From Acidimicrobiales bacterium (lineage in GTDB: Bacteria > Actinomycetota > Acidimicrobiia > Acidimicrobiales > JAMCQF01), in the NCBI GenBank assembly GCA_027366675.1, contig DAHXND010000180.1, positions 1 through 51,419 on the forward strand: a stretch of DNA of 51,419 bases. The letters are read 5' to 3'. Shown here one piece after another: positions 30,059 through 45,946 of this stretch (position 1 is its first letter; every line of letters starts with the position of its first letter). The notes beneath the pieces were generated by a model that had not been told where the DNA came from, did not search any database, and worked only from the letters and a program-made list of their open reading frames with translations. The translations under genes and the position numbers were made by a program.

Positions 30059-30065
30059 AGGCGCT

Positions 30066-31739: not shown

Positions 31740-33397
31740 GCCTCTTCTTCCTCTCGGCGCTGGTCCTACCGAAGATCGCGTGGTCGGCGATCCTGCCCGA
31801 GCTGATCCTGCTCGCGGCCCCTCTCGTGCTGCTCGCCGTCTCGGCGCTCAGCGCCCGCCGGCTCCCGACCGGAGTCTATGCAGGAGGGATGGGAGCAGCG
31901 GGCCTCGCCTCGCTCGGGGCGTCGGTGTGGCTCTGGACGCAGGTGACCCCGCACGGAGCCGGCACCGCCGTGGACGGCGCCATAGCAGTGGATGGCTTCA
32001 GCGTGCTCGTGATGATCCTCGTGAGCTCGGTAGTCGTTCTGGCTGCTCTGATAGGGGAGGGCTACCTACGCCGTGAGGGTATAGGCGGCCCCGAGTACTA
32101 CGTGCTCGCCATGTTCTCGGCTGCCGGCGCGATGCTCATGGCATCTGCTGACGATCTGGTGCTCATCTTCCTGGGGCTCGAGATCATGTCTATAGCGCTG
32201 TACGTGCTCGCCGGCCTGGACGCTCGGCGCCAGGGTTCCGGCGAGGCGGCGATGAAGTACTTCCTTCTCGGAGCATTCTCGTCTGCCATATTCCTGTATG
32301 GCATTGCTCTGGTCTACGGAGCCACCGGATCGACGAACCTTCCCCAGATAGCCGATTTCCTCGCTCATAACGTGGCGAGCTCCGACGGGCTCCTGCTCGC
32401 GGGAATGGCGCTTCTCCTGGTCGGCTTCTTCTTCAAGATCGCTGCAGTGCCCTTCCACATGTGGACGCCCGACGTGTACCAGGGCTCTCCCACCCCCGTT
32501 ACAGGGTTCATGGCGGCAGTAGCGAAGGCGGGAGGCTTCGCTGCGCTGCTGCGCGTCTTCTTCGCTTCCTTCGGCCTCCTGCGTGATGACTGGCAACCCG
32601 TTATCTGGCTGGTCGCAGTCGTGACCCTGCTCGTGGGCGCGGTGCTGGCCCTCGTGCAGCGCGACGTGAAGCGCATGCTCGCGTATTCCTCGATCAATCA
32701 CGCAGGGTTTATCTTGGTGGGACTCGAGGCGGCGACCACGAGGGGCATAGCGGCATCGCTCTACTACCTGTTCGTCTACGGCTTCATGGTGGTGGGAACC
32801 TTCGCTGTTGTAACGGTAATAGCCAGGCGCGGTGATGAGGCTCATGATCTGGGCTCCTATCGCGGCTTGGCTCAGCGCCAGCCGTTCCTGGCAGCCATGC
32901 TGGCTCTGCTCTTGCTGGCCCAGGCCGGGGTGCCACTTACGACCGGCTTCCTGGCGAAGCTGTACATCATCTCGGCTGCGGTGGAGGCCCACTCCTACGC
33001 GCTCGCCGTGATCGCCATGGTGTCTGCTGCGATAGCAGCCTTCTTCTACCTCCGTGTGGTCGTGCTCATGTACGCAGGAGCGAAGTCGGGTGTCGGGCTG
33101 CCTGCCCCGCTCGCTGCCACCGGGGCTGGCGAGGGCGCAGGCTCAGGGGAGCTGAGCCCAGTAGCTGCTTACGGGCCTGGAGCGGCCAGCGCTGCCGAGC
33201 TGGAGGGTGATCGCCCGGAAGCTTCTCGCCCGGATGGCGCGGGCGGCGGGGAAGGCCACGGCGAGCCTGATGCAGCTGGCGTTCCTGCCACGATCGCGCT
33301 GGCTATAGCCTTATGCGCAGGTTTCACGCTGCTCTTCGGTATCTGGGCCCAGCCGGTCGTGGAGCTGGCACGCCAGGCCACGTTGCTGTTCCACTGA
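31736..33397 (+). CDS. nuoN: NADH-quinone oxidoreductase subunit N
   Basis: ILPELILL, PFHMWTPDVYQGSPTPVT and the KRMLAYSSINHAG region. ATGA overlap with nuoM. Confidence 0.92.
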   Translation: MSLFFLSALVLPKIAWSAILPELILLAAPLVLLAVSALSARRLPTGVYAGGMGAAGLASLGASVWLWTQVTPHGAGTAVDGAIAVDGFSVLVMILVSSVVVLAALIGEGYLRREGIGGPEYYVLAMFSAAGAMLMASADDLVLIFLGLEIMSIALYVLAGLDARRQGSGEAAMKYFLLGAFSSAIFLYGIALVYGATGSTNLPQIADFLAHNVASSDGLLLAGMALLLVGFFFKIAAVPFHMWTPDVYQGSPTPVTGFMAAVAKAGGFAALLRVFFASFGLLRDDWQPVIWLVAVVTLLVGAVLALVQRDVKRMLAYSSINHAGFILVGLEAATTRGIAASLYYLFVYGFMVVGTFAVVTVIARRGDEAHDLGSYRGLAQRQPFLAAMLALLLLAQAGVPLTTGFLAKLYIISAAVEAHSYALAVIAMVSAAIAAFFYLRVVVLMYAGAKSGVGLPAPLAATGAGEGAGSGELSPVAAYGPGAASAAELEGDRPEASRPDGAGGGEGHGEPDAAGVPATIALAIALCAGFTLLFGIWAQPVVELARQATLLFH

Positions 33398-33434: not shown

Positions 33435-34148
33435 CTACGCCTTTGCCGCCGGGCTGGCCTTGTCACCAGGAAGGTAGGGCGCGATCGCAGCGGCGAGCAC
33501 CGGGAGTGGCATCGTCTGGAGCCAGACGGTGCCAGGACCGCTCAGGGCCACCAGGTGGAACCCGTCGGCACCGAAGAGCTTGTTCGCGATCCCCGGCACG
33601 CGGGTGATCTGGAAGCTCACGCTGTCCTGGAACACCCCGACGTGGCCCGGGTGGACGAGGATGCTCTGGCCCGCTGCGAGGTCGTAGGTGATGGTCTCGC
33701 CCGCCAGCTCCACCCACGCGGTGCCTTCCCCTTCGAGCTTCTCCAGGATGAAACCCTCGCCTCCCCACAGGCCGCCCCTGAAGCTCTGCTGCAACCCGAT
33801 CGATGGAACGACGCCGGGGGTAGCGCACAACCAGCCGTGCCGGTGGACGAGGAAACCCGCACCGGGGGCGACCGTCACCGGGAATATCCTCCCGGGAAGC
33901 TTCGCCGCGAAGGCGACGATTGCCTGGCCTCCACTGGCCTCGTAGCGGGTGAGGAACACTCCCCCGCCGCCCATGGCGCGCTTGATCCCAGCCATGACCC
34001 CGTGCTTGCCTCCGGTGCCCACGGTCTGGGACATCTGCATGTTGGGCCACATCCACGCGAGCTCGCCGTGCGTGGATATGACCTGCTCGCCCTGGTCGAG
34101 GACCACCTCCAGCACCGGGAGAGTCGACCCCTTCACGTCTGCCTGCAC
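33435..34148 (-). CDS. TIGR00266 / AIM24-family protein (DUF124)
   Basis: VLEVVLDQGEQVISTHGELAWM, GGGGVFLTRYEA, GEGFILEKLEGEG and VWLQTMPL are characteristic of the AIM24 double-psi-like family. Confidence 0.7.
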   Translation of the reverse strand: MQADVKGSTLPVLEVVLDQGEQVISTHGELAWMWPNMQMSQTVGTGGKHGVMAGIKRAMGGGGVFLTRYEASGGQAIVAFAAKLPGRIFPVTVAPGAGFLVHRHGWLCATPGVVPSIGLQQSFRGGLWGGEGFILEKLEGEGTAWVELAGETITYDLAAGQSILVHPGHVGVFQDSVSFQITRVPGIANKLFGADGFHLVALSGPGTVWLQTMPLPVLAAAIAPYLPGDKASPAAKA

Positions 34149-34432: not shown

Positions 34433-35764
34433 GTGGGGGTGCTGGTTCGGGGACATCGCATTCGCCTGGGCACGGTGCTCGGCTTTCCCGTCGAGATAAC
34501 TTCCTCATGGTTCCTCCTCGTAGTCATAGTGGTATGGAGTTTCTGGGTGCGCTACGCGTTGGAGTTCCACCATAAGACAGATGGTGTAGGCGTGGTGATG
34601 GCGATCGTGGCGACGGTCATCTTCCTCGGATCCGTGTTCGTCCACGAGCTGGCGCACGCTGTGGTGGCTCGCCGGAGAGGCATGGCCGTTACCGGTATAA
34701 CGCTCTACATCTTCGGAGGCGCCACGAGCGCGGGCGACCCGAAGAAGCCAGGTGACGAGTTCCTCATGACCGCAGCCGGCCCGCTTGTGAACTTCGTTGC
34801 CGCTCTGGTCCTGTGGGGGATAACCATTGCAGCTACCCACGGGCACCTGGCGGAGGTAGCGGAGGTATCAGGCGAGGCAGCCTGGCTGAACCTCCTGCTG
34901 GGAGCGTTCAACATAGTTCCGGCCTCTCCCCTGGACGGGGGGCACCTGCTCGAGGCGGTGGCGTGGCGGGTAAAGGGGTCACGTCCGAAGGCGATCCTCA
35001 TCGCGGCTGGTGCTGGAACGGTCCTGGGGTGGCTCCTGCTCGCGGCTGGCTTCTTCGAGCTCCTCTTCGTCACGGGAGGGCTGTTCGAGGGGCTATGGAT
35101 CGGGCTTATCGGGTTCATGCTGCTCGAGGGGGCCCGCTCGGAGAAGATGCGAGGATGGGTGGAAGGTGTGCTGGAGAACAAGCCCGCCTGGTACCTGCTA
35201 ACGGAGCACGCGGCCCCTGTCACCCCGGAGACGTCCATAGGCTGGCTGATAGGCGCTGAGCTCGTGCGCCACCACGTGGACGCTGTGCCGGTGGTGGACT
35301 CGAATCATGTGGCTGGAGTGGTGCTCGCGCAGGACGCGCTGTCCATCCCGCCGGCCGAGCGGTTCGGGCGCGTGGCGAAGGACGTCATGCGCCCGGTTAC
35401 CGACCTCCCCTGGGCGCGGGCCAGCGGTAAGGCCATGGATGTGCTCCGCCAGCTTGCCGAGCACCCGATCATTCTTCTGGTGGACGACAGGGGTGGGGCC
35501 GTTGGCGTGGTGAGCGAGCGCCAGGTTGGAGCCGTTCTCGAGCGCCTGCGTCTCCTGGACCAGCGTGGCGGCCAGCCCAGATCGGCGGGCCAGTTCGGGC
35601 CGTCAGGCTCATGGGACCAGTGGCAGCCAGGGGCAGGGTGGCAGCCGGGGACAGGGTGGCAGCCAGGATCCGGACCCCAGCCGGGATCTCCGTGGGATCA
35701 GGGACCACCAGGCCAGGACCGCCCGAAGCAGGATCCTCCTGGCAAGGATCCGGGAGCAGGCTGA
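34433..35764 (+). CDS. Site-2 (M50) zinc metalloprotease with CBS domain pair
   Basis: HELAHAVVARR (HExxH), FNIVPASPLDGGH (NxxPxxxLDG) and a C-terminal CBS-like region (VDAVPVVDSNHVAGVV...ILLVDDRGGAVGVVS). The tail has WQPG(A/T/S)G repeats (18-nt units, 35621-35692). GTG start. Confidence 0.8.
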   Translation: MGVLVRGHRIRLGTVLGFPVEITSSWFLLVVIVVWSFWVRYALEFHHKTDGVGVVMAIVATVIFLGSVFVHELAHAVVARRRGMAVTGITLYIFGGATSAGDPKKPGDEFLMTAAGPLVNFVAALVLWGITIAATHGHLAEVAEVSGEAAWLNLLLGAFNIVPASPLDGGHLLEAVAWRVKGSRPKAILIAAGAGTVLGWLLLAAGFFELLFVTGGLFEGLWIGLIGFMLLEGARSEKMRGWVEGVLENKPAWYLLTEHAAPVTPETSIGWLIGAELVRHHVDAVPVVDSNHVAGVVLAQDALSIPPAERFGRVAKDVMRPVTDLPWARASGKAMDVLRQLAEHPIILLVDDRGGAVGVVSERQVGAVLERLRLLDQRGGQPRSAGQFGPSGSWDQWQPGAGWQPGTGWQPGSGPQPGSPWDQGPPGQDRPKQDPPGKDPGAG

Positions 35765-35870: not shown

Positions 35871-36887
35871 TCAGACCGCTGGAACGGCCGTCTTCACTAT
35901 GGCGCCTGATGGCCGCATGACATGCCAGATCCCATCGAACTGATCCAGGTTCTGGCCGGCCAGGTCGCCAGGAGCGGTGTCCGTAGCGTAGTGGTAGAGC
36001 GGCCACCCGTTATATGTGAGCTCCTCACTCCCGCTCGGCCGCCTCACCTCCCCGACCAGGGAGCGCTGTATGCCGGGCCCGAAGCGCGATTCGCTCAGCG
36101 GTTTCTTGGTGAGCACCGGAGGCCACAGAGCCGTGCAGGCCCCGTGAGGGCAGTTGCTCCTGACCCCTCGCTGGTCACGGGTGAACATGAACACAGACAG
36201 CCCGGACCCTGTGGTGACGATGGTGCCAACTTTGGTCTTACGCGTGGAAAGCGCGTAGGGCGAGCTTGCCGAGCTGCTTGCGGAGCTGGAGGAGCCACAC
36301 GCTGCGAGAAGGCATGCAGCCAGAACTATCACAGCGAGTGGCGTTATGGTAAGGCGTGAAGCCTTGTCCTGGCTGGTGGCCGCATGGCTCTGGCCGTGAT
36401 CACTGACGGCAGAAGTCGCCGCAGGCGTGTAGGGGGAAGCGCCTGGCGCATCCGGAGAGCCTCCCCTGCCGGTACGGCCAGCTCCCAGGTAGCGACCGAG
36501 CAGCCCAGAGTGCTCGGCTGTGGATCCCCACACCGACCAGGCCAGCAGGGTGGTGGCGCCGATCACTTCTGACGCGATCGCGATCCCCCCCGAGTACGAG
36601 ATGCCTGGTTCGTGGAAGCCGAAAAGCACGGACTCGACAGCATATATGTACGCCCCGAGCGCACCTAGGCACATGAGTCCCGACGCGAGTGCCACCAGCC
36701 TGAGCGGGTATAGGGCGAGCAGGATGGCCAGCAAGAACGAGGAGATCACCAGCGCCAGGAACATCCAGCCGACCGTGGGTATGGCATCGTACTGCTCTCG
36801 CGCATACAGATTCAGGTGATCGACGGCTATGACGACCAGCATGGCTATCCCTACCCACAGCGCAGCGTGTCTGGTGTTCCGGGGCAT
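35871..36887 (-). CDS. Fusion of a 4-TM membrane domain to a lipobox-bearing COG4315 (Yx[FWY]xxD-motif secreted repeat, PF03640-like) domain
   Basis: The N-terminal roughly 120 aa form four hydrophobic helices. Then comes LTITPLAVIVLAACLLAACGSSS, a signal-peptide-like segment with an L-A-A-C lipobox. The C-terminal part carries CPHGACTALWPP and TYNGWPLYHYATDTAPGDLAGQ...GIWHV. No in-frame ATG, GTG or TTG precedes the internal lipobox segment. Confidence 0.6.
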   Translation of the reverse strand: MPRNTRHAALWVGIAMLVVIAVDHLNLYAREQYDAIPTVGWMFLALVISSFLLAILLALYPLRLVALASGLMCLGALGAYIYAVESVLFGFHEPGISYSGGIAIASEVIGATTLLAWSVWGSTAEHSGLLGRYLGAGRTGRGGSPDAPGASPYTPAATSAVSDHGQSHAATSQDKASRLTITPLAVIVLAACLLAACGSSSSASSSASSPYALSTRKTKVGTIVTTGSGLSVFMFTRDQRGVRSNCPHGACTALWPPVLTKKPLSESRFGPGIQRSLVGEVRRPSGSEELTYNGWPLYHYATDTAPGDLAGQNLDQFDGIWHVMRPSGAIVKTAVPAV

Positions 36888-36988: not shown

Positions 36989-37807
36989 TCAACTCGCGAA
37001 TGCCGTCTCGGCGTGGGCCTCTGCCGGGTCGTCGGATTCTGCCATCTCGTCCATCTGGATCGGTCCTTCGGTGCGACCGGCCAGGAACTGCTCTATGACG
37101 GGATCGGTGCTTGCCATCATCGCTTCCTTGGGGCCGAAGCCCACCAGGTGGGAGCGAAAGAGGATCCCGAGGAAGTCTGCTGTTCTGCTCACCGATTGGA
37201 TGTTGTGTGTGATGATGAAGAAGGTTGCTTTTGTGGCAGCCTGCGCTGTCACGACCAGCTCGTCCAGGTATGCAACGCGCACTGGATCGAGTCCGGAGTC
37301 CGGCTCGTCGAACAGGACTATCTCGGGCTCCATGACAAGCGCGCGCGCCAAGCCGGCGCGCTTGCGCATTCCTCCGGAGATCTCTCCCGGAAGCTTGTCC
37401 AGATGGTCGCCGAGCCCGACTATGGACGCATAGTGCATCACGATGTTCCTTATGGAACGCTCGTTGTTCTTCGTGTGCTCGCGCAGTGGAAATGCGATAT
37501 TGTCGTAGATGGGCATGGAGCCGAACAGGGCTCCATCCTGGAATAGCACGCCGAACTTGCGTCGCACCCGGTAGAGATCCTTCGTTCGCATGCCGACCAG
37601 TGGCTCTCCGTCTACCCATATCTGCCCGCTATCTGGCATGAGCAAGCCGAGGATGTGCTTCAGCAGGACGGACTTGCCGGTGCCGGAGGGCCCGAGAATA
37701 GCCGTGATGCGACCCTTCGGGATGTCGAAGGTGACATCGTCCAGGACAAGGTGGCTTCCGAACGCCTTGGTCAGCCCTTTGATGCTGATGATGGGCGTGG
37801 GTGGCAT
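36989..37807 (-). CDS. mceG: Mce-associated ABC transporter ATPase (MceG/Mkl, MlaF-like)
   Basis: Walker A GPSGTGKS, Q-loop FQDGALF, signature LPGEISGGMRKR and Walker B IVLFDEPDSGLD. ATG 37807 (GGAGA SD upstream) was chosen. The track ORF extends to 38005 but would run into the neighbouring gene. Confidence 0.85.
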   Translation of the reverse strand: MPPTPIISIKGLTKAFGSHLVLDDVTFDIPKGRITAILGPSGTGKSVLLKHILGLLMPDSGQIWVDGEPLVGMRTKDLYRVRRKFGVLFQDGALFGSMPIYDNIAFPLREHTKNNERSIRNIVMHYASIVGLGDHLDKLPGEISGGMRKRAGLARALVMEPEIVLFDEPDSGLDPVRVAYLDELVVTAQAATKATFFIITHNIQSVSRTADFLGILFRSHLVGFGPKEAMMASTDPVIEQFLAGRTEGPIQMDEMAESDDPAEAHAETAFAS

Positions 37808-37970
37808 TCTCCGGGCCTCGGGGCTCCCCTGGCTGGAGCCTGTCCGGCTCCCCTTGCCTGCTGCCGGTTCGGGGCGTACCCAGGAGATGCTCACGTACTG
37901 GTAACGTGCCTGCACAGCAGATCTTGCGGAGGCGCGCATGAGCCCCACTGATGGCATTGATTGGCGTTCC

Positions 37971-39602
37971 TCAGAGGCCGCTGCCGAGAACACCAGTGAG
38001 GTCACCGATCACGCCGGTGGCTCCCGACACCGTGCTACCGAGGGCGCTAGTGGCTCCAGATGCCGTGCGAGCGAGGGCGCTAGTGGCTGAAGATGCCGTG
38101 CTGCCGAGGGCGGACCCAGCCCCCGACACGGTGTTACCCAGGGCGCTAGTGGCTCCAGAAGCCGTGCGAGCGAGAGCGCTAGTGGCTCCCGATGCCGTGC
38201 TACCGAGAGCGCTAGTGGCTCCCGATGCTGCGCTACCGAGGGCGGACCCGGCCCCGGACAGCGTGCTGCCGAGAGCGGATCCGGCCCCAGACACCGTGTT
38301 ACCGAGAGCAGACCCGGCCCCAGACACCGTGTTACCAAGGGCGGATCCGGCTCCCGACACGGTGGAACCGAGAGCAGACCCAGCCCCGGACACCGTGCTA
38401 CCGAGAGCGGACCCAGCCCCGGACACCGTGCTACCGGGGGCGCTGGTGCTCGCGGCGCTGTCTCTTGCCGAGTTGGTAGCAGAACCTGATGTAGTGCCGG
38501 CGCCAGAGGCCTTCACGGGCAAATGCGCCTCCGAGCGGGGATGGGTCACCGATCCAGTCGGGGCGCTTCCGCCCGCGCGGGAGCTCACGGGACTCACGAG
38601 ATGGATGGCCCTCTTCCCGCTGGCCGGCGTGTTGCTGCCCTGAAGAATCACGGTAGGTACGATGACGCCAGCCGTGGCAACCGCAGCGAGAGCTCCGAGG
38701 AGCAGCAGGCGCGCGCTGTGCCCGGCAGCGGGGGCCCCTGACGTCAGAGCCTGAGACCCTCCAGGCATATGGCGGGCGAGCGATAGCCGCATGGCAGCGA
38801 GTTTCTCTCGTATCGCACTGGCGGCCCGGCTTGGTATCGCCCAGAGACTGGAAAGAGCGCCACCCAGCAGAGCGAAGGCCCCGAGGCCACCCTCGCAGAT
38901 CGCCTGGTATTCGCGTTTCAGCGCTTGCCGGGCACGCCACAGCAGGGTTTCCACCGTGCTCACCTCTACGCCCTCGCGCTCTGCTATCTCCTGGTAGCTG
39001 AGTGACGATCCTTCTCTGAGCTCGAGGACCATCTGGTGGCGCCGGTTCAGTCGCCTGAACGCCAACGATGCGATCCGGCGATCTTCTGCTTCCAGTACGG
39101 AAGCCTCACCGTCGTCTCGCTGGATTGCCGCTTCCACCTGGTGGCGACCAGCGAGATCGATATCTGCGACCGGGATGCTCCGGTGCCGCTTCCTGAGCTG
39201 GTCTGTGCATAGGTTGGCTGCGATCACGCTGAGCCACGGGTAGAAGCGCCTGTCTCCACCGAAGCGACCGAGCGCCTTCCAGGCCTTAATGAAGGATTCC
39301 TCGGTTACGTCCTCTGCCTCATGAGAGTCGCGCAGCCTCCTCATGCAGAAACGGAAAAGCCGCTCCCTGTAGCGGCGGTAAAGCTCCTCGAACGCTGAGT
39401 GGTCGCCCGCCTGGCACTGCTCCACCAGCAGGCGATCTCTGGCCAGATCCACGTCGTCCGAAAGTGACAGCCCTACGAGGGACCGATCCGCTCGACTGAC
39501 TCTCCAGCGAGAAGCTCGCTCCTGCCGCTGGCTCTCGTGCCCCCAGGCGTCTTCCTGCTCCCACTGATCCCCTTGCCCCCACTGGGCTTCTTCTATAGCC
39601 AT
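37971..39602 (-). CDS. ECF-type sigma-70 factor fused to hydrophobic segment(s) and a C-terminal 11-residue-repeat domain
   Basis: Region 2 is FEELYRRYRERLFRFCMRRLRDSHEAEDVTEESFIKAW. Region 4 is LNRRHQMVLELREGSSLSYQEIAEREGVEVSTVETLLWRARQALKRE. The same frame continues with hydrophobic stretches (aa 236-256 and 298-320). It then runs through 12 full plus 2 degenerate copies of GSTVSGAGSAL to the stop at 37971. Confidence 0.75.
   Translation of the reverse strand: MAIEEAQWGQGDQWEQEDAWGHESQRQERASRWRVSRADRSLVGLSLSDDVDLARDRLLVEQCQAGDHSAFEELYRRYRERLFRFCMRRLRDSHEAEDVTEESFIKAWKALGRFGGDRRFYPWLSVIAANLCTDQLRKRHRSIPVADIDLAGRHQVEAAIQRDDGEASVLEAEDRRIASLAFRRLNRRHQMVLELREGSSLSYQEIAEREGVEVSTVETLLWRARQALKREYQAICEGGLGAFALLGGALSSLWAIPSRAASAIREKLAAMRLSLARHMPGGSQALTSGAPAAGHSARLLLLGALAAVATAGVIVPTVILQGSNTPASGKRAIHLVSPVSSRAGGSAPTGSVTHPRSEAHLPVKASGAGTTSGSATNSARDSAASTSAPGSTVSGAGSALGSTVSGAGSALGSTVSGAGSALGNTVSGAGSALGNTVSGAGSALGSTLSGAGSALGSAASGATSALGSTASGATSALARTASGATSALGNTVSGAGSALGSTASSATSALARTASGATSALGSTVSGATGVIGDLTGVLGSGL
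37974..38435 (-). repeat. Tandem 33-nt repeat array, 14 units (12 full and 2 degenerate), in frame with the sigma gene
   Basis: Read directly. For example, 38403-38435 and 38370-38402 differ at 1 nt. Units 38403-38435 and 38337-38369 differ at 9 of 33 nt yet encode the identical peptide GSTVSGAGSAL on the minus strand. Confidence 0.95.
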
Positions 39603-39949
39603 GACCCCTCCCAGACCCCCTTCTCAGGCGATCATCACCAGGCGTTTGCACCCGGCAACAACCGGACTACCGAAGCTGGCCCTGCGGTCGGCCCAATCGC
39701 AGTTCCCCTATAGCTCGGGCTGACTTCCCCCGAAATTGCTGTTACCTCACGTATATCACGCTTGGTAGTGCTTTGCAAGCGCGCCGTGTTCGGGTTCTCA
39801 CCACAGGAGCTTCTGGCGGTGATCCCGGACGGATGATGGATGCTACCGCAAGTTCCCGATAGGGCAGCCGTTCCCTCTCCGTGGGGTTACCGTTCGTAGT
39901 GGTGACCGGAGCGAACGGGAATACACGAGATGCTCTATAAGGAGTCAGG
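39603..39949. promoter_or_regulatory. Divergent intergenic control region between the sigma fusion gene and the surface-protein/sortase operon
   Basis: This 347-nt gap lies between divergent start codons. It contains the inverted repeat ccgttcg-N15-cgaacgg (39890-39896 / 39912-39918) and an AAGGAG Shine-Dalgarno at 39939-39944. No confident -35/-10 pair was identified by eye. Confidence 0.4.
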
Positions 39950-41614
39950 ATGATGCTATATGAGGGGAAGATGTACAGATCCAGGGGTCTTGCCCTCGCA
40001 GCCGAGGCAGCCCTTGTCACAGCAGCCGTGCTGCTCGTGCTGCTCTCGAGCGTGGTATTCGTGGCATTCACCGATGGAGCGGCAGGAGCCGCACTGGCTC
40101 CCACCTGGAAGGGGAGCGCCTCGGCTCAGGCTCTCAAGGTATCCCTCGCGGGTACCAGCCTCGTAGGCGGAGATGCCACTTCGTCACTCTCGGGGACGCC
40201 GGCAGAAGGGGCGAGTGCCTCCTCGCAGATGCAGTCCCCAGATCTCCAGGCAACTGGCTCAGGCGAGCTCCTGCCGGTCCTGACAGCGCAGCAGAGCGCC
40301 AGGGTGACGGCGGCTGGCCGCCAAGACTCGCTACCGCAGGCCTGTGGCACCCCCTCGCTTCCCTCGCTTCCCGCTCCATTCACCTCCCTGCTTGCTCTTG
40401 GTGCAGGGTGCGGCTCAGCGACTGCCACAGCGACTGGACCCGACGAGGCTGCGAGCGCTACCGGGAGCGTGGCCAACCTGACCATCGGGCTCGGAGGTCT
40501 GTTGAAGGATGTGCCGGGGCTCAGCAGCGGCCTGTCGAGCCTAACATCGGCCCTCCAGTCTGCCCTTGGCTCCCTGCCGAGCTTGCCGGGCGGCGGGGTC
40601 TCGCCTACCAGTGCGTTGAGCAGCGTGCTGGGTGTCTTGAGCCATGCACCTGGCAGCCAGTCATCGTCGGTCTCTTCTAACAGCAGTGGCAGCGCCGGCG
40701 CGGATGGTGGGGGTGCCACCGTGGAAGGCAGTGGGTCATCCTCGGCATCCTCCAGCGGAGGCTCGGGCGGCTCTTCCGGCCTTCCATCGGTCCCCGGGCT
40801 CTCATCGCTGGCTGGGATCGTCCAGGGCATAGTCGGCTCACTCCCCGGCATGGCAAGCGGCGGCGTCTCCCCGGCAAGCGTGCTCGAAGGCGTCCTCGGG
40901 GTGCTCTCGGCGAGCCAGCTTCTCTCTGCGCAGATTGGCCAGTCCCAGGCAAGCATGGCAGCCACCGGGTCGGCATCCCTTCAGGCCTCGTCCACTGCAA
41001 ACGGGGGTAGCGTGGCGCTTTTCCCAGGGCTGGATGGGGGTTCAACTGCTCTCCTGACCGTGAACGTGGCTGCGGCGAGGAGCGTGGCGACCGAGCCGGC
41101 TGACGGCCAGCCTCCCACGGCGAGCGTGACGCCGGCCGTAGCCACCGTGACTGTTGCCCTACCGGGCACGGCGCCACAGACCCTGTCAGTCGGTCCTGGC
41201 AAGTCGGAGACGCTCTTCTCCGGGACGCCGCTCGAGAGCACGATCTCAGTCGCTGGAGGTAATACCTCGGTGCAGGGAGATACGGCTACGGCGAGCTCCC
41301 AGGGGGTTCAGATAGACCTGCTCCAAGGTCTGGATGGCGGCGTAAACCTCGATCTGGCCTCTACGAACGCGTCAGTCGACACCCCGGCGGTTCCGAGCAG
41401 CAGCCCGGTGAGCCCAGTCCCACCGGTGCAGGTGACGTCTTCGAGCACGCTTGCTCCGGTGACGGGCGTGACAAGCGTGCACACGGGCGAGCCGTGGGCT
41501 GGGGGGCTTCCTTACGCAGCGGGCCTTCTGGCTGTCGGGGCGGGTCTCATGAACCTACAGCGCATCCGGCGTGCTCTGAAACGCCTGCGGCTCCATCATG
41601 TCTCGGATAGATGA
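39950..41614 (+). CDS. Ser/Gly/Ala/Leu-rich secreted protein with a C-terminal cell-wall sorting-signal-like tail (candidate sortase substrate)
   Basis: N-terminal hydrophobic anchor or signal (ALVTAAVLLVLLSSVVFVAF). An internal roughly 40-aa duplication lies at 40511-40642 and 40790-40909. The C-terminus reads LAPVTGVTSVHTGEPWAGG, then the hydrophobic LPYAAGLLAVGAGLM, then the basic tail NLQRIRRALKRLRLHH. Confidence 0.6.
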   Translation: MMLYEGKMYRSRGLALAAEAALVTAAVLLVLLSSVVFVAFTDGAAGAALAPTWKGSASAQALKVSLAGTSLVGGDATSSLSGTPAEGASASSQMQSPDLQATGSGELLPVLTAQQSARVTAAGRQDSLPQACGTPSLPSLPAPFTSLLALGAGCGSATATATGPDEAASATGSVANLTIGLGGLLKDVPGLSSGLSSLTSALQSALGSLPSLPGGGVSPTSALSSVLGVLSHAPGSQSSSVSSNSSGSAGADGGGATVEGSGSSSASSSGGSGGSSGLPSVPGLSSLAGIVQGIVGSLPGMASGGVSPASVLEGVLGVLSASQLLSAQIGQSQASMAATGSASLQASSTANGGSVALFPGLDGGSTALLTVNVAAARSVATEPADGQPPTASVTPAVATVTVALPGTAPQTLSVGPGKSETLFSGTPLESTISVAGGNTSVQGDTATASSQGVQIDLLQGLDGGVNLDLASTNASVDTPAVPSSSPVSPVPPVQVTSSSTLAPVTGVTSVHTGEPWAGGLPYAAGLLAVGAGLMNLQRIRRALKRLRLHHVSDR

Positions 41615-42851
41615 CGCGGCCGGCCCTCGAAGTAGCGGTGCGCGCGCCCTGCATCCAAGCGTCGTAGCCGGTACACTTCTAATCTGGGTCGTTCTAGGAT
41701 TCGTTGGCTACGCTGCCGGCTGGACGTTCCGGAGCCATCGCGCAGACCAGGCCATAGTTCACTCTGTGCATTCGCAGCTTTCCACGATCAGCGTTGCCGG
41801 CTGCAGGCCAGTTCTGCCATCGAGCGGGCAAGTAGCTGGCATACTGTCCATTCCATCCCTCCATGTGAAGGCTCCCGTGGAGCAGGGGCTGGCAGGCGCG
41901 GTGCTGGATGTGGCAGTTGGCCACGCCTCCCAGTCGGTATGGCCAGGGCAAGGTGGCTCGGCCGTCTTCCTGGCCCACGACGTCAGCTATTTCAGCAGGA
42001 TCGACGAGCTCGCTCCCGGCTCTGTGATCACGTTCCAGGGTCTTCCTGAAGGTTGCAGGAAGCTGACGTTCGAGGTCACCGGCCACGACGTCGTTCCCGC
42101 TGGCTCTCCTATAGCTCAGCAGGCAGAGCCATCCATGGTGCTCGACACCTGCTGGCCCGTTAACGCGCTCTGGTACACACCGAACCGCTATCTGGTGCGC
42201 GCCGTGGAGGTAGGAGGCTCGCCTTCCAGGGTCGGTCCTCACTCCAGGGTCAATCCTCACTCCAGCGCCAGGAGCGCTGCTGCATCTAGAAGCGAGAAGG
42301 CGCACGAGAGCCCGCCGGGGAAGGCGGGAGTATCGAGAGCGCTACGGGAAGTCATGGTCAACCCCTCCTCCAGCTGGTCACTGCCGGCGTCATCGAACCT
42401 GGAAGTCCCTGCTCCGGCTGCCCTCGTCGCCCAGGGCCTGACGCTCCAGGACAACGAGGCACCCATGGGAGCCATGGCGCTGCTCGGGAGCCCTGCGTCG
42501 AGCTGGGCAGAGTCGCCAGCCCCGCTGGAGGTGGAGGCCAGCGCTCTCGAGGAGTACTTCGGTGCACTTCACGCGCTCTCTCAGGGCGAGGCTGCCTGGT
42601 GGGCAGATCTCGCTCCAGGAGTCACATTTCCCCAGATATTCGACGGGACTTCTGTGGTAGCCCATGACAGCGGTCTCGACGTCACGATCACGGCAGAGGG
42701 GACGCACCCGCTGGAAGTGATCCTCAGCTCCACCGTCGGGTTGTCAGGCGCATCAGTGCCAGGGGGATCCGGAGCTTACCGGCTAGAGGTGAAAGAGGCC
42801 GTGGAGGGCGGATCACTCTTCATAACTACATGGAGCGTGACGCCCGCATGA
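41598..42851 (+). CDS. Divergent sortase (class E/F-like transpeptidase fold) with N-terminal TM anchor and a roughly 200-aa C-terminal extension
   Basis: GILSIPSLHVKAPVEQG...VGHASQSVWPGQGGSAVFLAHDVSYFSRIDELAPGSVITF...MVLDTCWP...RYLVRAVEV reproduces the order of sortase His, Cys (TC.P) and Arg motifs. The usual AGHR is replaced by LAHD. There is a 17-nt overlap with the upstream gene. Confidence 0.6.
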   Translation: MSRIDDAAGPRSSGARALHPSVVAGTLLIWVVLGFVGYAAGWTFRSHRADQAIVHSVHSQLSTISVAGCRPVLPSSGQVAGILSIPSLHVKAPVEQGLAGAVLDVAVGHASQSVWPGQGGSAVFLAHDVSYFSRIDELAPGSVITFQGLPEGCRKLTFEVTGHDVVPAGSPIAQQAEPSMVLDTCWPVNALWYTPNRYLVRAVEVGGSPSRVGPHSRVNPHSSARSAAASRSEKAHESPPGKAGVSRALREVMVNPSSSWSLPASSNLEVPAPAALVAQGLTLQDNEAPMGAMALLGSPASSWAESPAPLEVEASALEEYFGALHALSQGEAAWWADLAPGVTFPQIFDGTSVVAHDSGLDVTITAEGTHPLEVILSSTVGLSGASVPGGSGAYRLEVKEAVEGGSLFITTWSVTPA

Positions 42852-43810
42852 TCCGAGCGCTTGCTATGGGGCTGAAGTTTTTTCCCCATGTGACCGCAAG
42901 GGTCCTGAAGCTCCGGCGTTTCACCGAGGTGGTGAAGACTCGGGGCCTCGCAGCGCGGCTTTCCAGTACGAGCTGGCGAACGCGTGCGATCATTTTCTCT
43001 GCGGGCAGCCTCGGCGCGCTGCTCACAGGTGGGATCCTGGGTGGAGCTCTGGGTGGGTTCCAGGTCTCCTTCCCATTCGCCGGAGCGTCCAGTCATGAAG
43101 GAAGGGTTCCCGCCCCTCGCGCAGGAAGGGTTCGAGCCCCAGGCAGAGGAGATGAGCTCAGGTCGCAGGATGTGGCCCTGATGTACCCTGCAGGTACATC
43201 GATCGCCGGGAGCTTTGGATCATCAGCCCCCGGTAGCAAGATCCCGGGAAGTGCTAGGGGCGCGACAGGCCCCGAGCTGGCCACGACCCCGGCCAGTGGT
43301 ACCGCCCATGGCGAGCCCGATTCGGCAACGGGAGCCCCACCCCGGAGCACGGATCCCACTCCGGGCTCGTCGAACGGGGCCGGCCCCGGCACTTCCTCGG
43401 GAGCGGATGGACCTTCCGGTGGGTCCACGACGCCGGTATCGGGGCCGGTATCGGGTACGCATGAAGGCTCGACCAGTAGCCCCCTTCCTGGCCATATCGA
43501 TCTCGGTAACGGCACTGTCCAGGTAGCTGCCAGCGGTAGCGGGGTTTCCGTCTCTGCCGGTAAGGGCGCGGCGGGCATCGGAGCAGGAAGCTCCGGGATC
43601 AGTGCTTCCCTGGGCAGCGGCGCAGTAGGCGTCAGCGCCGGCAGTTCCGGGGGCGGATCCTCGGCCACGAGCTCGTCTGGTAAGAGCGGATCCCCGACCG
43701 CGAGCTCGTCTGGCAAGAGCTCGCCAGGTGTCAGTGTGAGCGTTGCCGGGATCGATGTCGGCATCAGCTCTGGAGGCGTGACCAGCAATCTGAATCTCGG
43801 AGGTCTGTGA
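42830..43810 (+). CDS. Gly/Ser-rich membrane-anchored hypothetical protein
   Basis: The ORF overlaps the sortase gene end by 22 nt. It has one hydrophobic segment (AIIFSAGSLGALLTGGILGGALGGF), followed by a low-complexity P/S/G/T region and GSG(V/I)S(V/A)S-type repeats. The exact start is uncertain and no family was recognised. Confidence 0.4.
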   Translation: MERDARMIRALAMGLKFFPHVTARVLKLRRFTEVVKTRGLAARLSSTSWRTRAIIFSAGSLGALLTGGILGGALGGFQVSFPFAGASSHEGRVPAPRAGRVRAPGRGDELRSQDVALMYPAGTSIAGSFGSSAPGSKIPGSARGATGPELATTPASGTAHGEPDSATGAPPRSTDPTPGSSNGAGPGTSSGADGPSGGSTTPVSGPVSGTHEGSTSSPLPGHIDLGNGTVQVAASGSGVSVSAGKGAAGIGAGSSGISASLGSGAVGVSAGSSGGGSSATSSSGKSGSPTASSSGKSSPGVSVSVAGIDVGISSGGVTSNLNLGGL

Positions 43811-44000
43811 CTGCCTCCACCTAGATCGCAGCCTGTGACACGGGGGGACGCCTACCGGCTTGGTCGGCCCCCCAGAGGTCGGTATCGACCCCCCGTGGGC
43901 TGCATTGGCGCGATACATGCCCCTGCACGGGGCTTGCCCCTGGCTGCAGTTCCAGAGAGGGCTTTCATTCGGCCGGCTTCCCAGCGGCCAGCTTTCCGGT

Positions 44001-44040
44001 AGAGGGCTTCCCAGTAGAGGGCTTCCCAGTAGAGGGCTTT
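44001..44040 (+). repeat. Non-coding tandem 15-nt repeat agagggcttcccagt, about 2.7 units
   Basis: Read directly, in the 400-nt gap upstream of the mce operon. Confidence 0.85.
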
Positions 44041-44210
44041 CATGTGCCGGGCTTTAGCGGCTAAATATCTCACTTCCTGTGGTCGGCTGGCCGCAAGGCA
44101 AGGGGTGTTGCCACGTTACCCAGACAGGGGAGCAGTCGAGGATAGGCCGCTCCGATCGGAAGGACTACAGCAGGGGGCCTTCAGTGGTGCAAGATACCGA
44201 CAGGGAAGGT

Positions 44211-45053
44211 ATGAGGGGAGCGCTCGGGCTGTCCTCGGGCGCGCCGAAGGCCCGTCCATCCGATCCTCTGGTGCCGCCGCTCGGAGCGAAGGTTCGGCGG
44301 CTGCTCGAGGATACAGGCAACATGTTCGCAGTTGCCCTGGAAGCGCTACGCAGTCTCTTCACGGAGGGAATGCCGCTCGGTGAGCTCATAGACCAGTGCT
44401 GGTTCCTCGCACGGGTAACGACCCTGCCACTCATACTGGTCTCGGTTCCCTTCGGTATGGTGATCGCGCTCGAGGTCGGATCCCTGCTGTCCCAGGTCGG
44501 GGCGCAGGCTCAGCTGGGAGGCGCGATGGTCCTCGCTGTAGTGCGCGAGCAGGCTCCCATTGCCACAGCCCTGCTCATAGCTGGTGCGGGCGGGTCCGCG
44601 ATGTGCGCCGATCTCGGTAGCAGGAGGATTCGCGACGAGATCTCGGCGATGGAGGTTATGGGTGTCAATCCGCTGAACAGGCTCGTTCTCCCGCGCCTCG
44701 CGGCAGCCATGATCGTGGCGTTCCTTCTCGATTCTGTCGTGAGCGTTGCCGGGATCGCAGGAGGGCTCTACTTCGGAACTGCGTCAGTTCACATAACCGT
44801 CAGCAGCTTCTTCGCCACATTCAGCGAGCTGAGCCAGATCTGGGATCTGCTCATGGCACTGGTGAAGGCGTTGATCTTCGGCCTTATCGCTGCGATGGTT
44901 GCCTGCTACAAGGGCCTCTACGCGAAGGGAGGCCCCAAGGGAGTCGGGGATGCAGTGAACCAGGCTGTCGTCATAACGTTCATCCTCGCGTTCGTGGTGA
45001 ACTCCGTGCTCACCATCGGATACTTCAACTTCATACCTCAGAAGGTGATCTGA
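44211..45053 (+). CDS. yrbE: Mce-system permease YrbE-A (MlaE family)
   Basis: LGELIDQCWFLARVTTLP, VVREQAPIATALLIAGAGGSAMCADLGSRRIRDEISAMEVMGVNP. ATG 44211 is preceded by GGGAAGG. The track ORF starts at 44079. Confidence 0.85.
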   Translation: MRGALGLSSGAPKARPSDPLVPPLGAKVRRLLEDTGNMFAVALEALRSLFTEGMPLGELIDQCWFLARVTTLPLILVSVPFGMVIALEVGSLLSQVGAQAQLGGAMVLAVVREQAPIATALLIAGAGGSAMCADLGSRRIRDEISAMEVMGVNPLNRLVLPRLAAAMIVAFLLDSVVSVAGIAGGLYFGTASVHITVSSFFATFSELSQIWDLLMALVKALIFGLIAAMVACYKGLYAKGGPKGVGDAVNQAVVITFILAFVVNSVLTIGYFNFIPQKVI

Positions 45054-45055
45054 GC

Positions 45056-45946
45056 ATGGCTATAGCCGTCGACAGGGGGGTAGCTGATCGCAGGGGGGTC
45101 TCCGGCGAGCGCCGCCATCACACTCCGGGCCAGCGTGCTCTGAGCCAAGCCCTTGGCGCGATCGAGCTCGTATACGACCATCTGGCCTTCTACTGGCAGG
45201 TTCTGCGGGCGATGCCAAAGGCACTGAAGTACCGGGCCGAGATCTTGCTCCTCATCTCGGACATAGCTGTTGGACCCAGCGCTCTCGTAGTAGGGGGCGG
45301 GATGCTCTTCGTCGTAGTCAGCATCTCGTTCTTCACGGGCACCGAGGTGGGTCTGGAGGGATTCACGGGCCTGCACGAGATCGGGGCCCAGGCATTCGTA
45401 GGGGTGATCGCGTCACTCGCCAACACGAGAGAGATCACGCCGCTGGTAGCCGGGATCGCCCTGGCTGCACAGGTGGGTGCTGGCTACACCGCGCAGATTG
45501 GCGCGATGAAGATCTCCGAGGAGATCGACGCTCTCGAGGTAATGGGCGTGAACAGCACGGTTTACCTGATCGGCACGCGCGTCTGGGCAGCTCTGGTAAC
45601 GATGATACCGCTATACTTGGCAGCGCTGTTCTCCAGCTTCTTGGCCAGCCAGTTCATCGTTACTACCTTCGAGCACCTGCCAGTTGGCACCTACCAGCAC
45701 TACTTCCAGCTCTTTCTCCCACCGATAGATATCTTCTACTCATTCCTGAAAGCCATGGCGTTCGCGGTTGTCGTGGTCATGGTGCACTGCTACTACGGCT
45801 ACAAGGTCAGGGGCGGCCCTGCAGATGTTGGTGTGGCAGCGGGAAGGGCCATAAGGCTCTCGATCATCTTGATAGTGCTTCTGAACCTCTTCCTCTCGCT
45901 CGTGATGTTCGGAGGGGACTCGAACACGGCGAGGTTGCTCGGGTGA
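45056..45946 (+). CDS. yrbE: Mce-system permease YrbE-B (MlaE family)
   Basis: TREITPLVAGIALAAQVGAGYTAQIGAMKISEEIDALEVMGVNS, paralogous to the preceding gene. Confidence 0.85.
   Translation: MAIAVDRGVADRRGVSGERRHHTPGQRALSQALGAIELVYDHLAFYWQVLRAMPKALKYRAEILLLISDIAVGPSALVVGGGMLFVVVSISFFTGTEVGLEGFTGLHEIGAQAFVGVIASLANTREITPLVAGIALAAQVGAGYTAQIGAMKISEEIDALEVMGVNSTVYLIGTRVWAALVTMIPLYLAALFSSFLASQFIVTTFEHLPVGTYQHYFQLFLPPIDIFYSFLKAMAFAVVVVMVHCYYGYKVRGGPADVGVAAGRAIRLSIILIVLLNLFLSLVMFGGDSNTARLLG

Follow-up and report, generated by a model that had tools for sequence, protein, structure and literature searches.

The stretch of DNA considered here (the window; 51,419 nucleotides from an uncultured Acidimicrobiales bacterium) carries a Mce transporter locus, comprising two MlaE proteins, several proteins that combine MlaD and Mce4_CUP1 domains, and an MceG-type ATPase. 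Next to the ATPase gene is a continuous open reading frame of 543 residues on the minus strand, encoding an extracytoplasmic function (ECF) sigma factor, a transmembrane (TM) helix, a linker and a tail of 11-residue repeats. The preliminary description of this DNA dealt with the repeat array and mentioned neither the membrane-anchored sigma factor nor the Mce genes around it. The features of the locus are the following.

36989-37894, minus strand: mceG/mkl-type ABC ATPase, directly 3' of the sigma factor gene (Pfam ABC_tran; match to 8fed_G)
37903-37928, minus strand: CGCAAG-N17-GTT motif, 8 nt 5' of the GTG at 37894, a probable leaderless mceG start
37971-39602, minus strand: 543-residue sigma factor fusion, within which lie the next six features
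37974-38006, minus strand: C-terminal cap GDLTGVLGSGL, a variant of the family end motif TVxGLLGG
38007-38435, minus strand: 13 units of 33 nt, residues 390-532, predicted amphipathic 11/3 α-helix
38436-38642, minus strand: S/A/G/T/P-rich linker (by composition), residues 321-389, predicted extracytoplasmic
38643-38708, minus strand: single predicted TM helix (Kyte-Doolittle), residues ~299-320, LLLLGALAAVATAGVIVPTVIL
38916-39062, minus strand: sigma-70 region 4, residues 181-229 (Pfam PF08281 and PF04545)
39180-39383, minus strand: sigma-70 region 2, residues 74-141 (Pfam PF04542, E = 4e-17; AlphaFold2 pLDDT >90)
39847-39872, plus strand: the same motif, facing the divergent genes for the 554-residue protein and the sortase
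39950-41614, plus strand: 554-residue secreted protein rich in S, G and L, whose C terminus has a hydrophobic anchor and a basic tail; no Pfam match
41598-42851, plus strand: sortase (Pfam PF04203)
42895-42920, plus strand: the same motif, 8 nt 5' of the GTG at 42929
42929-43810, plus strand: membrane-anchored S/G-rich protein ending in LNLGGL, which resembles the cap motif (the longest open reading frame starts at 42830)
44079-51396, plus strand: mce operon (Pfam)
44092-44117, plus strand: the same motif, at the head of the yrbE-mce operon
44079-45053 and 45056-45946, plus strand: two MlaE/YrbE permeases (Pfam)
45943-47358, 47355-48599, 48326-49750 and 49747-51396, plus strand: four MlaD/Mce4_CUP1 proteins (Pfam)

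Sigma-70 regions 2 and 4 are present in the 543-residue protein and region 3 is absent, as is characteristic of ECF (group 4) sigma factors. The Pfam scores are 62 bits for Sigma70_r2, 36.6 bits for Sigma70_r4_2 and 24.7 bits for Sigma70_ECF (cut-off 21.1). The NCBIfam model of the sigma70-ECF superfamily, TIGR02937, is matched with 103.9 bits against a cut-off of 42.9, and no NCBIfam model at the equivalog level exceeds its own cut-off. The Kyte-Doolittle profile in a 19-residue frame has its maximum, 2.23, at residues 301-319, the sole segment of the protein above 1.2; a hydrophobic stretch occupies the same position in the family consensus. Because the sigma domain is expected to be cytoplasmic and there is one TM helix, the tail is predicted to lie outside the cell.

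This layout, in which sigma2 and sigma4 at the N terminus are followed by one TM helix and an extended C-terminal part outside the cytoplasm, resembles that of the ECF48, ECF52 and ECF53 fusions, of which SCO4117 is an example, and of IutY from Pseudomonas putida. The single TM segment and the 223 residues beyond it correspond to the one or two TM helices and the long extension found in ECF52/ECF53-type fusions. IutY is activated by regulated proteolysis, and the same has been predicted for ECF48, ECF52 and ECF53, the sigma domain being set free by the cleavage (PMC8999054). The window protein differs from these fusions in several respects, however. The zinc-finger anti-sigma motif HxxxCxxC, which lies between sigma4 and the TM helix in ECF52/ECF53-type fusions, was sought across the whole protein and is absent; the sole cysteine past sigma4 is C236. 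Residues 321-543 match no Pfam domain at E <= 1 and thus lack the carbohydrate-binding domain of ECF52 (SCO4117-like) proteins, and a Pfam search of the entire protein gave no match to the FecR domain of IutY-like (ECF243) factors. Instead, the outer part is a low-complexity 11-residue repeat, predicted to be helical, with an LLGG-type end. Furthermore, unlike ECF48, ECF52 and ECF53, the family is found almost exclusively in Acidimicrobiales and is embedded in mce loci. The main text of the ECF classification 2.0 (Casas-Pastor et al. 2021) lists no Acidimicrobiia group of this architecture.

Slices of 33 nt taken downward from 38435 on the minus strand give 14 units in register, which is the number reported in the preliminary description. 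Only 13 of them are recognisable repeats, however: units 1 to 12 are clear copies and unit 13 (GSTVSGATGVI) is partly diverged. The units encode peptides of the GSTVSGAGSAL and GSTASGATSAL types. The 14th slice, GDLTGVLGSGL, has 18-22 mismatches in 33 nt to the other units, about the level expected of unrelated sequence, and matches the C-terminal end motif conserved in the family, so that it is better named a cap than a decayed repeat. In the output of Tandem Repeats Finder the 33-nt period extends over 38019-38442, where it is repeated 12.8 times with 76% matches. The program also reported a 99-nt super-period, which was discarded because its 73% matches are no improvement on the 33-nt unit. 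As a bare tandem repeat the array is ordinary; its interest comes from its context.

All nucleotide counts given earlier were reproduced on recount. The units at 38403-38435 and 38370-38402 differ by 1 nt, and those at 38403-38435 and 38337-38369 differ by 9 nt, although both encode GSTVSGAGSAL. One of the latter changes converts a serine codon from AGC to TCC. Differences between units were then tallied in all six frames over units 1 to 12, the last unit being omitted so that each frame stays within the array. Frame 0 of the minus strand has 260 synonymous and 159 non-synonymous codon differences, a peptide identity of 0.78 and no stops. In four of the other frames the ratio is ~45-52 to 380-400, the identity is 0.45-0.48, and stops are present in three of the four. 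Pairwise comparison of the seven GSTVSGAGSAL-type units gives 115 nucleotide differences, of which 88 are at the third codon position; 91 codon differences are synonymous compared to 18 non-synonymous. The synonymous fraction over units 1 to 13 is 0.569, a value that was not reached in any of 1000 column permutations (mean 0.205, maximum 0.465).

The next-best frame is antisense. It belongs to a plus-strand open reading frame (37951-38643, 230 residues) that has an ATG start and no stops within the array, and its peptide identity of 0.69 could make it appear to be the conserved one. Its tally of 220 to 222 is nevertheless below that of the sense frame, and its conservation is a by-product of wobble positions that coincide in the two frames. 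Of 74 homologue tails, 22 contain stops in this frame, whereas more than 300 homologues with this layout have the sense frame joined without a break to the sigma domain. It is thus very improbable that the conserved frame is the antisense one (or, as discussed below, that the repeat is a β-solenoid or fibre). No other frame or strand equals frame 0 of the minus strand in peptide conservation. The minus-strand frame is translated and its peptide is under purifying selection, as had been proposed from the pairwise unit differences.

The homologues number 325 at E <= 0.001; among the matches listed, they have lengths of 337-578 residues and the same layout. The 90% cluster of the window protein contains the window contig only. 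Loci were compared in 79 genome loci of homologues, nearly all from Acidimicrobiales. The length of homologous arrays changes by gain and loss of entire 33-nt units, which bears out the earlier suggestion of copy-number variation. P0018/L007 and P0037/P0040 match one another in nearly everything apart from an exact indel of 33 residues (three units). Near-identical relatives thus have 2 compared to 5 units, and members of the SGLSNTLNSTS subfamily have 2, 6, 11 or 13. Independent 33-nt arrays are present in loci L001, L003 and L007. The unit sequence varies by lineage (GSTVSGAGSAL, SGLSNTLNSTS, GGTVKGVTGAL), but positions 1, 4, 6 and 11 (Gly1, Val/Ala4, Gly6, Leu11) are kept across divergent unit types.

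According to the preliminary description, its interpretation would be refuted by orthologues that keep the module while lacking the array. This is partly the case: the closest syntenic relative (P0012/L006) retains the sigma-mce module and has no sequence repeat. A clear 11-residue sequence periodicity is present in only 75 of 191 family tails. These two observations indicate that the tandem array is lineage-specific, whereas a predicted amphipathic helical tail persists throughout the family.

The tail is probably a long amphipathic 11/3 α-helix. The hydrophobic residues of the 11-residue unit are spaced 4 and 7 apart and are aligned at ~98° per residue. The hydrophobic moment of the window tail is 0.99 at 98.2°, and all other harmonics are at or below 0.64. 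When power spectra are averaged over 190 homologue tails, the peak is at 98-100° and reaches 8.5 times the background, compared to ~1 for shuffled sequences; individual peaks fall within 90-109° in 176 of the 190 tails. The repeat lags found across the family (11, 7, 18, 22, 15 and 14) are all helical periodicities. AlphaFold2, given the tail alone as a single sequence, predicted one continuous helix at residues 8-163 with a pLDDT of 89.9, although two of the five models failed, with pLDDT ~30. The 11-residue period with 4/7 hydrophobic spacing is that of the known hendecad, or 3-11 amphipathic helix (PMC5889406), contrary to the earlier statement that no class could be named for the repeat.

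The solenoid or fibre-like element suggested earlier would be in keeping with the G/S/T/V-rich composition, which recalls some β-helical repeats. The region of 160-180°, where a β pattern is expected, is only 1.5 times the background in the homologue spectrum, however, and 11 residues are too short for one coil of a solenoid. With the helical moment and the AlphaFold2 model, this argues strongly against a β-structure.

A disordered tail is a more serious, if rather unlikely, alternative. The tail would then be a wall-crossing spacer, possibly glycosylated, in which the period only reflects recent 33-nt slippage and selection acts on composition, favouring small and uncharged residues, rather than on a periodic fold. 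The composition is indeed extreme: 79% of the residues are G, S, T or A, and 3 of 154 are charged. Gly and Ser together account for 45%, which is a poor helix-forming composition in water. A spacer would also explain why unit sequences differ between lineages, why 2 to 13 units are tolerated and why the closest syntenic relative can do without the repeat. When AlphaFold2 was run on the full-length protein with an 86-sequence alignment, the tail was left without secondary structure at pLDDT <50. The same low value was obtained even for the TM segment, and because the repeat region aligns poorly this result is uninformative rather than proof of disorder. On the other hand, the 98-100° periodicity is also found in tails that have no repeat or have lags of 7, 18 or 22, and slippage of one unit size cannot explain it. 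The retention of positions 1, 4, 6 and 11 across divergent unit types and the strong synonymous excess, including the two-step AGC to TCC serine switch, speak against a spacer, as does the helical tail-alone prediction.

The 3-11 amphipathic-helix class includes apolipoproteins, α-synuclein and perilipins; its 11-residue repeats have no fold of their own but become helical on lipid, to which longer arrays bind more strongly (PMC5889406). The window tail resembles perilipin 4, apolipoproteins and α-synuclein in its 11-residue period of three turns, its weak hydrophobicity based on small residues and its tandem arrays free of internal indels. The growth of perilipin 4-class binding with repeat number (PMC5889406) fits the copy-number variation in the family. 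Unlike those proteins, the tail is bacterial, predicted to be extracytoplasmic and joined to a transcription factor; it is essentially uncharged, contains far more Gly and has no detectable homology to them. The window protein gave no Pfam match to Apolipoprotein, ApoLp-III, Perilipin, Synuclein or LEA_4 at E <= 1. A sequence search of solved structures with the tail returned only matches with E > 2 (AlyQ and spider minor ampullate fibroin). In a phmmer search of 1.84 billion proteins, the tail matched mostly proteins with periods of 11, 22 or 33, and three of the ten matches that were scanned had sub-threshold hits to Apolipoprotein, ApoLp-III or Phasin.

The window unit also fits the a-d-e-h core of a hendecad coiled coil, with a = Leu11, d = Thr3, e = Val4 and h = Ala7. 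Such 11/3 coiled coils are found in tetrabrachion, and phage tape-measure proteins are 11-periodic. The periodicities of 7, 11, 15 and 18 in the family are the usual set for coiled coils. A core of this kind would be small to an unusual degree, however, and so much Gly is not typical of stable coiled coils.

The ABC protein encoded downstream of the sigma factor gene has as its best match among solved structures MceG of the Mce1 complex (8fed_G, E = 6e-92), and matches MlaF with E = 5e-60. An MceG gene is downstream of the sigma factor gene in 53 of the 79 loci, MlaE is upstream in 41 and a sortase is upstream in 27. The window also encodes an M50 protease with CBS domains (34433-35764), which was considered as a site-2 protease partner and rejected because it is absent from all 79 related loci. 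Among the 51 loci with full flanks, 31 are linked to mce genes, and ~60% of family members lie between mceG and a divergent yrbE-mce operon. The sigma factor probably regulates the surrounding Mce gene cluster. Against this role, the remaining 20 of the 51 members have no adjoining mce genes, and similar 11-residue G/S/T/V tails occur in a second, unrelated sigma-fusion family (P0130, P0172 and P0173), which has HxxxCxxC and no mce context. No earlier connection between ECF sigma factors and mce operons was found in the literature.

The four exact copies of CGCAAG-N17-GTT in the window all lie within 37903-44117, by the sigma factor gene, and face mce-related genes. The related loci contain 73 copies, compared to 5-7 in shuffled sequences, and 46 of these are directly upstream of MlaE or MceG. 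In 26 of 74 loci an equivalent motif separates the sigma stop codon from the ABC gene, and in 26 loci one is found upstream of MlaE. The motif is a candidate ECF-type promoter, which this sigma factor may recognize. No copy lies upstream of the sigma factor gene itself. When read on the other strand, as [AG]AAC-N17-CTTGCG, the motif had been considered as an autoregulatory promoter and as an antisense promoter into the array; this was rejected because on the opposite strand the motif stands directly in front of MlaE and MceG, 8 nt before a start codon.

The end of the tail resembles that of some transporter proteins. The pattern L[LVIF]G is present in the last 14 residues of 119 of 191 family members (62%), compared to 0.05 occurrences per 14 residues elsewhere in the tail. 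The consensus sigma-tail end, xLLGGxx, is also that of the MceA and MceC encoded beside the sigma factor gene: it or a close variant terminates MceA in 22 of 24 and MceC in 11 of 12 related loci, and the window MceA ends in HMLLGGL. Apart from the sigma fusions and Mce proteins, hardly any protein of these loci has an LLGG-type ending. The similarity extends over just ~8-10 residues, however, and the sigma tail contains neither the MlaD domain nor the helical repeat of Mce proteins. As seen by cryoEM, Mce1 is a complex ~310 Å long with a distal portal formed by the MceA-F C-termini (PMC9882608). The tail could therefore be imagined as a docking arm that runs along the Mce needle, its cap occupying the distal site of the MceA or MceC C-terminus, and that reports transporter assembly rather than lipid. 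The position of the gene between mceG and yrbE-mce is in keeping with such an arm, and a helix of 143 residues would measure ~21 nm, of the same order as the complex.

Tail length, however, varies several-fold among close relatives, so the arm is not a fixed ruler, and the window cap, VLGSGL, is a weak variant of the consensus LLGG. Mce-like endings are also found on sigma paralogues that are not linked to mce: the cap is present in 23 of 31 linked and 12 of 20 unlinked members (p = 0.36; p = 0.31 in another test), a negative result for the idea that it is specific to mce-linked members. The docking arm thus appears improbable. So does its corollary, in which the sigma factor is a removable subunit of the transporter whose cap competes for the MceA/MceC portal site, and whether sigma is released to transcribe mceG and yrbE-mce depends on how many transporters are unoccupied or mis-assembled, or on the flux of lipid through them. 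If it were true, a transcription factor would be a removable subunit of an envelope-spanning machine.

We favour, with some reservation, a different reading, in which the Mce lipid-transport genes are under the control of a one-component ECF sigma factor that is tethered in the membrane and has a helical tail as its sensor or tether. Each 11-residue unit would make three helical turns, and 13 units would give an amphipathic 3-11 (hendecad) α-helix of ~21 nm. Its hydrophobic stripe would be narrow, consisting of Leu11 and Val4 flanked by Thr3 and Ala7, with an uncharged Gly/Ser face. Like other 11-residue amphipathic helices, it would probably fold only against a hydrophobic surface, for which the outer leaflet, the lipid substrate and the Mce needle are candidates. 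The avidity of the tail would scale with unit number, which would account for a drifting copy number alongside the retention of Gly1, Val/Ala4, Gly6 and Leu11. Whether the tail is occupied would govern either the freeing of the sigma domain by proteolysis or the activity of the tethered domain, as in other sigma-transmembrane fusions. Once free or active, this domain would direct transcription of mceG, yrbE-mce and the sortase-linked genes for surface proteins from CGCAAG-N17-GTT promoters.

Outside mycobacteria, little is known of what regulates Mce lipid importers. The locus may represent a compact circuit composed of a tethered sigma factor, a helical tail that probably binds lipid or a partner, and a conserved motif before the transporter genes. 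If so, the principle of the 11-residue amphipathic helix, familiar from eukaryotic lipid-droplet and lipoprotein proteins, extends to an extracytoplasmic bacterial sensor, the length of which could be tuned by 33-nt slippage. A cultured relative exists, Aciditerrimonas ferrireducens JCM 15389 (locus L010, NZ_JBHLYQ010000015.1).

Divided every 33 nt from 38435, the minus strand of the array at 37974-38435 yields 14 units, numbered here downwards from 38435. Tandem Repeats Finder gives 12.8 copies at 38019-38442, with 76% matches. As the preliminary description had stated, units 1 and 2 differ at 1 nt and units 1 and 3 at 9 nt, both of the latter encoding GSTVSGAGSAL. One of the changes is a serine switch from AGC to TCC, which is unreachable in one synonymous step. 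Units 1-6 and 10 are GSTVSGAGSAL-like, units 7-9, 11 and 12 are GSTASGATSAL-like, and unit 13 mixes the two. Between unit 14 (GDLTGVLGSGL) and any of the others, 18-22 of 33 nt differ.

The array is real, coding and under selection, and the pattern observed in it is far from chance. The claim that the minus-strand frame is translated and its peptide selected agrees with a six-frame tally, in which minus frame 0 has the highest ratio of synonymous to non-synonymous differences (260:159) and a peptide identity of 0.78. The best other frame, the wobble-aligned antisense frame, has 220:222 and 0.69, and the remaining four have about 45-52 : 380-400 and 0.45-0.48. Of 115 pairwise differences among units of the main type, 88 fall at codon position 3, and 91 codon differences are synonymous versus 18 non-synonymous. 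None of 1000 column permutations reached the synonymous fraction of units 1-13. A stop-free antisense ORF of 230 aa (37951-38643, plus strand) lies opposite the array, and its frame shares wobble positions with the sense frame. It was judged a compositional by-product, because stops interrupt the same frame in 22 of 74 homologue tails.

The array forms the 3'-terminal part of a minus-strand ORF of 543 codons (37971-39602). Residues 59-232 of the product are an ECF sigma-70 domain according to both Pfam and NCBIfam, predicted by AlphaFold2 with a pLDDT above 90. The sole strongly hydrophobic segment (residues ~299-320) is directly followed by a 69-residue linker rich in S, A, G, T and P, then by 13 repeats (residues 390-532) and the terminal unit. 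The protein lacks the HxxxCxxC motif of zinc-finger anti-sigma segments. Because the sigma domain must act in the cytoplasm and there is a single transmembrane helix, the tail probably lies outside the membrane. The best-supported interpretation is a one-component membrane-tethered ECF sigma factor. The main value of the array is its context, which was invisible to a reader of the sequence alone.

Genes around the sigma fusion
21967-33397, plus strand, nuo genes G, H, I, L, M and N (scanned on either side of 27140-28171)
33435-34148, minus strand, AIM24-family protein
34433-35764, plus strand, M50+CBS protease
35871-36887, minus strand, Lipoprotein_15 protein
36989-37894, minus strand, ABC ATPase
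37971-39602, minus strand, sigma fusion
39950-41614, plus strand, 554-aa secreted S/G/L-rich protein
41598-42851, plus strand, sortase
42929-43810, plus strand, membrane protein ending LNLGGL
44079-45946, plus strand, two MlaE/YrbE permeases
45943-51396, plus strand, four MlaD/Mce4_CUP1 proteins

A homologue search of 5.8 billion proteins (E <= 0.001) returned 325 relatives, the best 120 of which have 337-578 aa and the same layout. The nearest is only about 40-60% identical, so that no strain-level relative of the window organism is among them. A scan of one genome per species located 229 encoding loci; the 79 fetched, which include two or three from the same MAG in some cases, are almost all labelled Acidimicrobiales/Acidimicrobiaceae or unclassified Actinomycetota, with two exceptions.

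Periodicity of the tail sequence is common, not universal. The top autocorrelation lag is 11 in 49 of 120 homologues (other top lags are 7, 18, 22, 15 and 14), and lag-11 identity is at least 0.25 in 75 of 191 non-redundant tails, the window tail having 0.69. Further lineages carry 33-nt arrays of different units, with 13.5 copies in locus L001, 11.5 copies at 97% identity in L003 and 5.1 copies in L007. An exact 33-aa block separates protein P0018 of L007 from the near-identical P0037 and P0040, each form being present in two independent sources, and unit number in the subfamily with SGLSNTLNSTS units is 2, 6, 11 or 13. The expected copy-number variation is thus found among homologues. Array length in relatives does differ by whole blocks, but the closest syntenic relative (P0012, locus L006) has no sequence repeat at all. 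What is conserved is therefore the tail; tandem arrays are a dynamic state of it that arises recurrently and in particular lineages.

The hydrophobic moment of the window tail is maximal at 98.2 degrees, equivalent to three turns per 11 residues. The mean hydrophobicity power spectrum of 190 other family tails has a single sharp peak at 98-100 degrees, 8.5 times the mean, compared to about 1 in shuffles and 1.5 in the beta region near 164 degrees; in 176 of the 190 the maximum lies between 90 and 109 degrees. The peak does not depend on the local repeat length, an argument that what the tails conserve is an amphipathic alpha-helix. The solenoid or fibre proposed earlier was thus a wrong guess. 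In a hendecad mapping of the window unit, Leu11 occupies position a, Thr3 d, Val4 e and Ala7 h.

Structure prediction favors the helix in part. AlphaFold2 applied to the tail alone produced one helix (residues 8-163, pLDDT 89.9) in three of five models, whereas the tail is unstructured in the full-length run with an alignment, and its high Gly/Ser content counts against a helix. Given this disagreement and composition, the helix may form only against a partner surface, as do the 11-mer helices of perilipins, apolipoproteins and alpha-synuclein (PMC5889406).

A phmmer search with the tail against 1.84 billion representatives matched 213 proteins of very diverse architectures at E <= 0.001. The 11-mer periodicity does recur in other proteins: the best period is 11, 22 or 33 in 142 of the 149 best matches, the window's own protein excluded. 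Sub-threshold Apolipoprotein, ApoLp-III or Phasin matches were found in three of ten tail-search proteins scanned; the window tail itself matched no Pfam family and no solved structure. Three of the matches are ECF sigma fusions of a different family with HxxxCxxC.

P0130, P0172 and P0173, with locus L080 8001-10136, represent this second, unrelated ECF sigma-fusion family of 650-730 aa, with an HxxxCxxC anti-sigma motif, a transmembrane segment and long 11-mer G/S/T/V tails (units GSGVGNTVKGV, GSTVSGVTEAA and GVGTTVQKTTS). The P0130 gene has a patatin-like lipase gene beside it, and so do two unlinked paralogues from the window's family. Tails of 11-mers may be a module that actinobacterial sigma fusions generally use outside the cytoplasm.

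The ABC ATPase is far closer to MceG of the Mce1 complex than to MlaF (6e-92 vs 5e-60). The sigma gene is followed by MceG in 53 of the 79 related loci and has a divergent MlaE upstream in 41, and 27 of the loci include a sortase; 31 of the 51 loci with full flanks are mce-linked. Unlinked paralogues neighbor patatin, FadD and SDR genes, or PAP2 and DsbA, which anecdotally are again membrane-lipid-related. In a literature search, no report connected an ECF sigma factor with an mce operon or described the 11-mer tail of this fusion.

The motif CGCAAG-N17-GTT (extended consensus cCGCAAGgt-N13-gcCGTTytCC) has four exact copies in the 51-kb window, all between 37903 and 44117, facing mceG, the 554-aa gene, the LNLGGL gene and yrbEA; a rough estimate for the 9-base pattern is about 0.4 copies by chance. 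A stricter pattern has 73 copies in the related loci, compared to 5-7 in shuffles, and 46 of the 73 are directly upstream of MlaE or MceG on the same strand. The geometry of the motif is that of an ECF promoter, with AA within the -35 element, a spacing of 17 nt and CGTT as the -10 element. From its position, we infer that the window sigma factor reads this motif. Of 97 sites, 26 have a start codon 8 nt downstream of GTT, among them GTG 37894 and GTG 42929 in the window, which suggests that these two transcripts are leaderless.

Three to four direct non-coding 15-nt repeats (GCTTCCCAGTAGAGG) at 43975-44054, about 40 nt upstream of the 44092 motif (yrbEA), are potential operators through which a second regulator would act on the mce operon. 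Starting exactly 8 nt downstream of the GTT in the 39847-39872 motif, a 19-codon ORF (39881-39940, GTG GGG TTA ... CTA TAA) ends in a stop that overlaps the ribosome-binding site (AAGGAG) of the 554-aa gene, to which it may be coupled as a leaderless upstream ORF.

The tails have a common C-terminal end motif, or cap. In 119 of 191 family members the last 14 residues include L[LVIF]G, mostly in the form TVxGLLGG with 0-2 residues after it, the density of L[LVIF]G elsewhere in the tail being 0.05 per 14 aa. The cap or a close variant also ends MceA in 22 of 24 loci (HMLLGGL in the window) and MceC in 11 of 12, and among 2561 open frames of at least 150 aa in the loci LLGG endings are almost confined to sigma fusions and Mce proteins. 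These endings suggest a shared partner for sigma tails and MceA/MceC. The C-termini of mycobacterial Mce1 form the distal portal (PMC9882608), and the common ending would fit a sigma tail that docks on the Mce machine. However, the cap is equally frequent in mce-linked and unlinked family members (p = 0.36), and docking is therefore kept as a minority reading.

In the mechanism preferred for the tethered sigma factor, the outside tail would be an amphipathic 3-11 helix of variable length, with a hydrophobic surface as the thing it senses or binds, and the cytoplasmic sigma domain would drive the flanking Mce genes. Activation would probably come from proteolytic release of the domain, the mode of IutY and the one proposed for ECF48/52/53 (PMC8999054). 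The fusion belongs to neither the ZAS-containing fusion groups nor the apolipoprotein-like Pfam families, because the defining features of both are absent from it, although by analogy it would work like both.

In a subfamily including P0011, P0021, P0026, P0035 and P0043, LLGG is not terminal but lies between two cysteines (...C-x17-LLGG-x9-C-S), an arrangement suggestive of a disulfide-closed loop presenting the motif. The LNLGGL protein is membrane-anchored and S/G-rich (ORF 42830-43810, probable start 42929), and its end resembles those of sigma tails and MceA. The gene has a CGCAAG-N17-GTT motif of its own and a 33-nt repeat (2.1 copies, 43653-43720). Loci L010 and L042 have comparable ORFs, about 300 aa long and ending in LLGG.

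The 554-aa protein has an internal duplication (GLSSGLSSLTSALQSALGSLPSLPGGGVSP... and LPSVPGLSSLAGIVQGIVGSLPGMASGGVSP...). Its C-terminus consists of a ...VHTGEPWAGG segment, a hydrophobic stretch and a basic tail. With this C-terminus and a sortase gene downstream, the protein resembles a sortase substrate whose signal is not of the LPXTG type. In 27 of 79 related loci, the two genes form an insertion that separates the sigma gene from the mce operon. The M50 protein, 2 kb from the sigma gene, belongs to the site-2 protease family and has a CBS domain and a C-terminal GWQPG-type repeat; in none of the 79 related loci is the protease conserved beside the sigma gene. Other short tandem repeats in coding sequence are a 15-nt array of 6.9 copies (12715-12818), which encodes (V/G)PDA(S/T)G-type pentapeptides N-terminally in a 470-aa protein (12673-14085), GVPAG pentapeptides at the NuoH C-terminus (26115-26178) and 2.3 copies of an 18-nt unit (27089-27130) with which the Fer4-domain (NuoI-like) gene ends. 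Low-complexity terminal repeats seem common in this genome.
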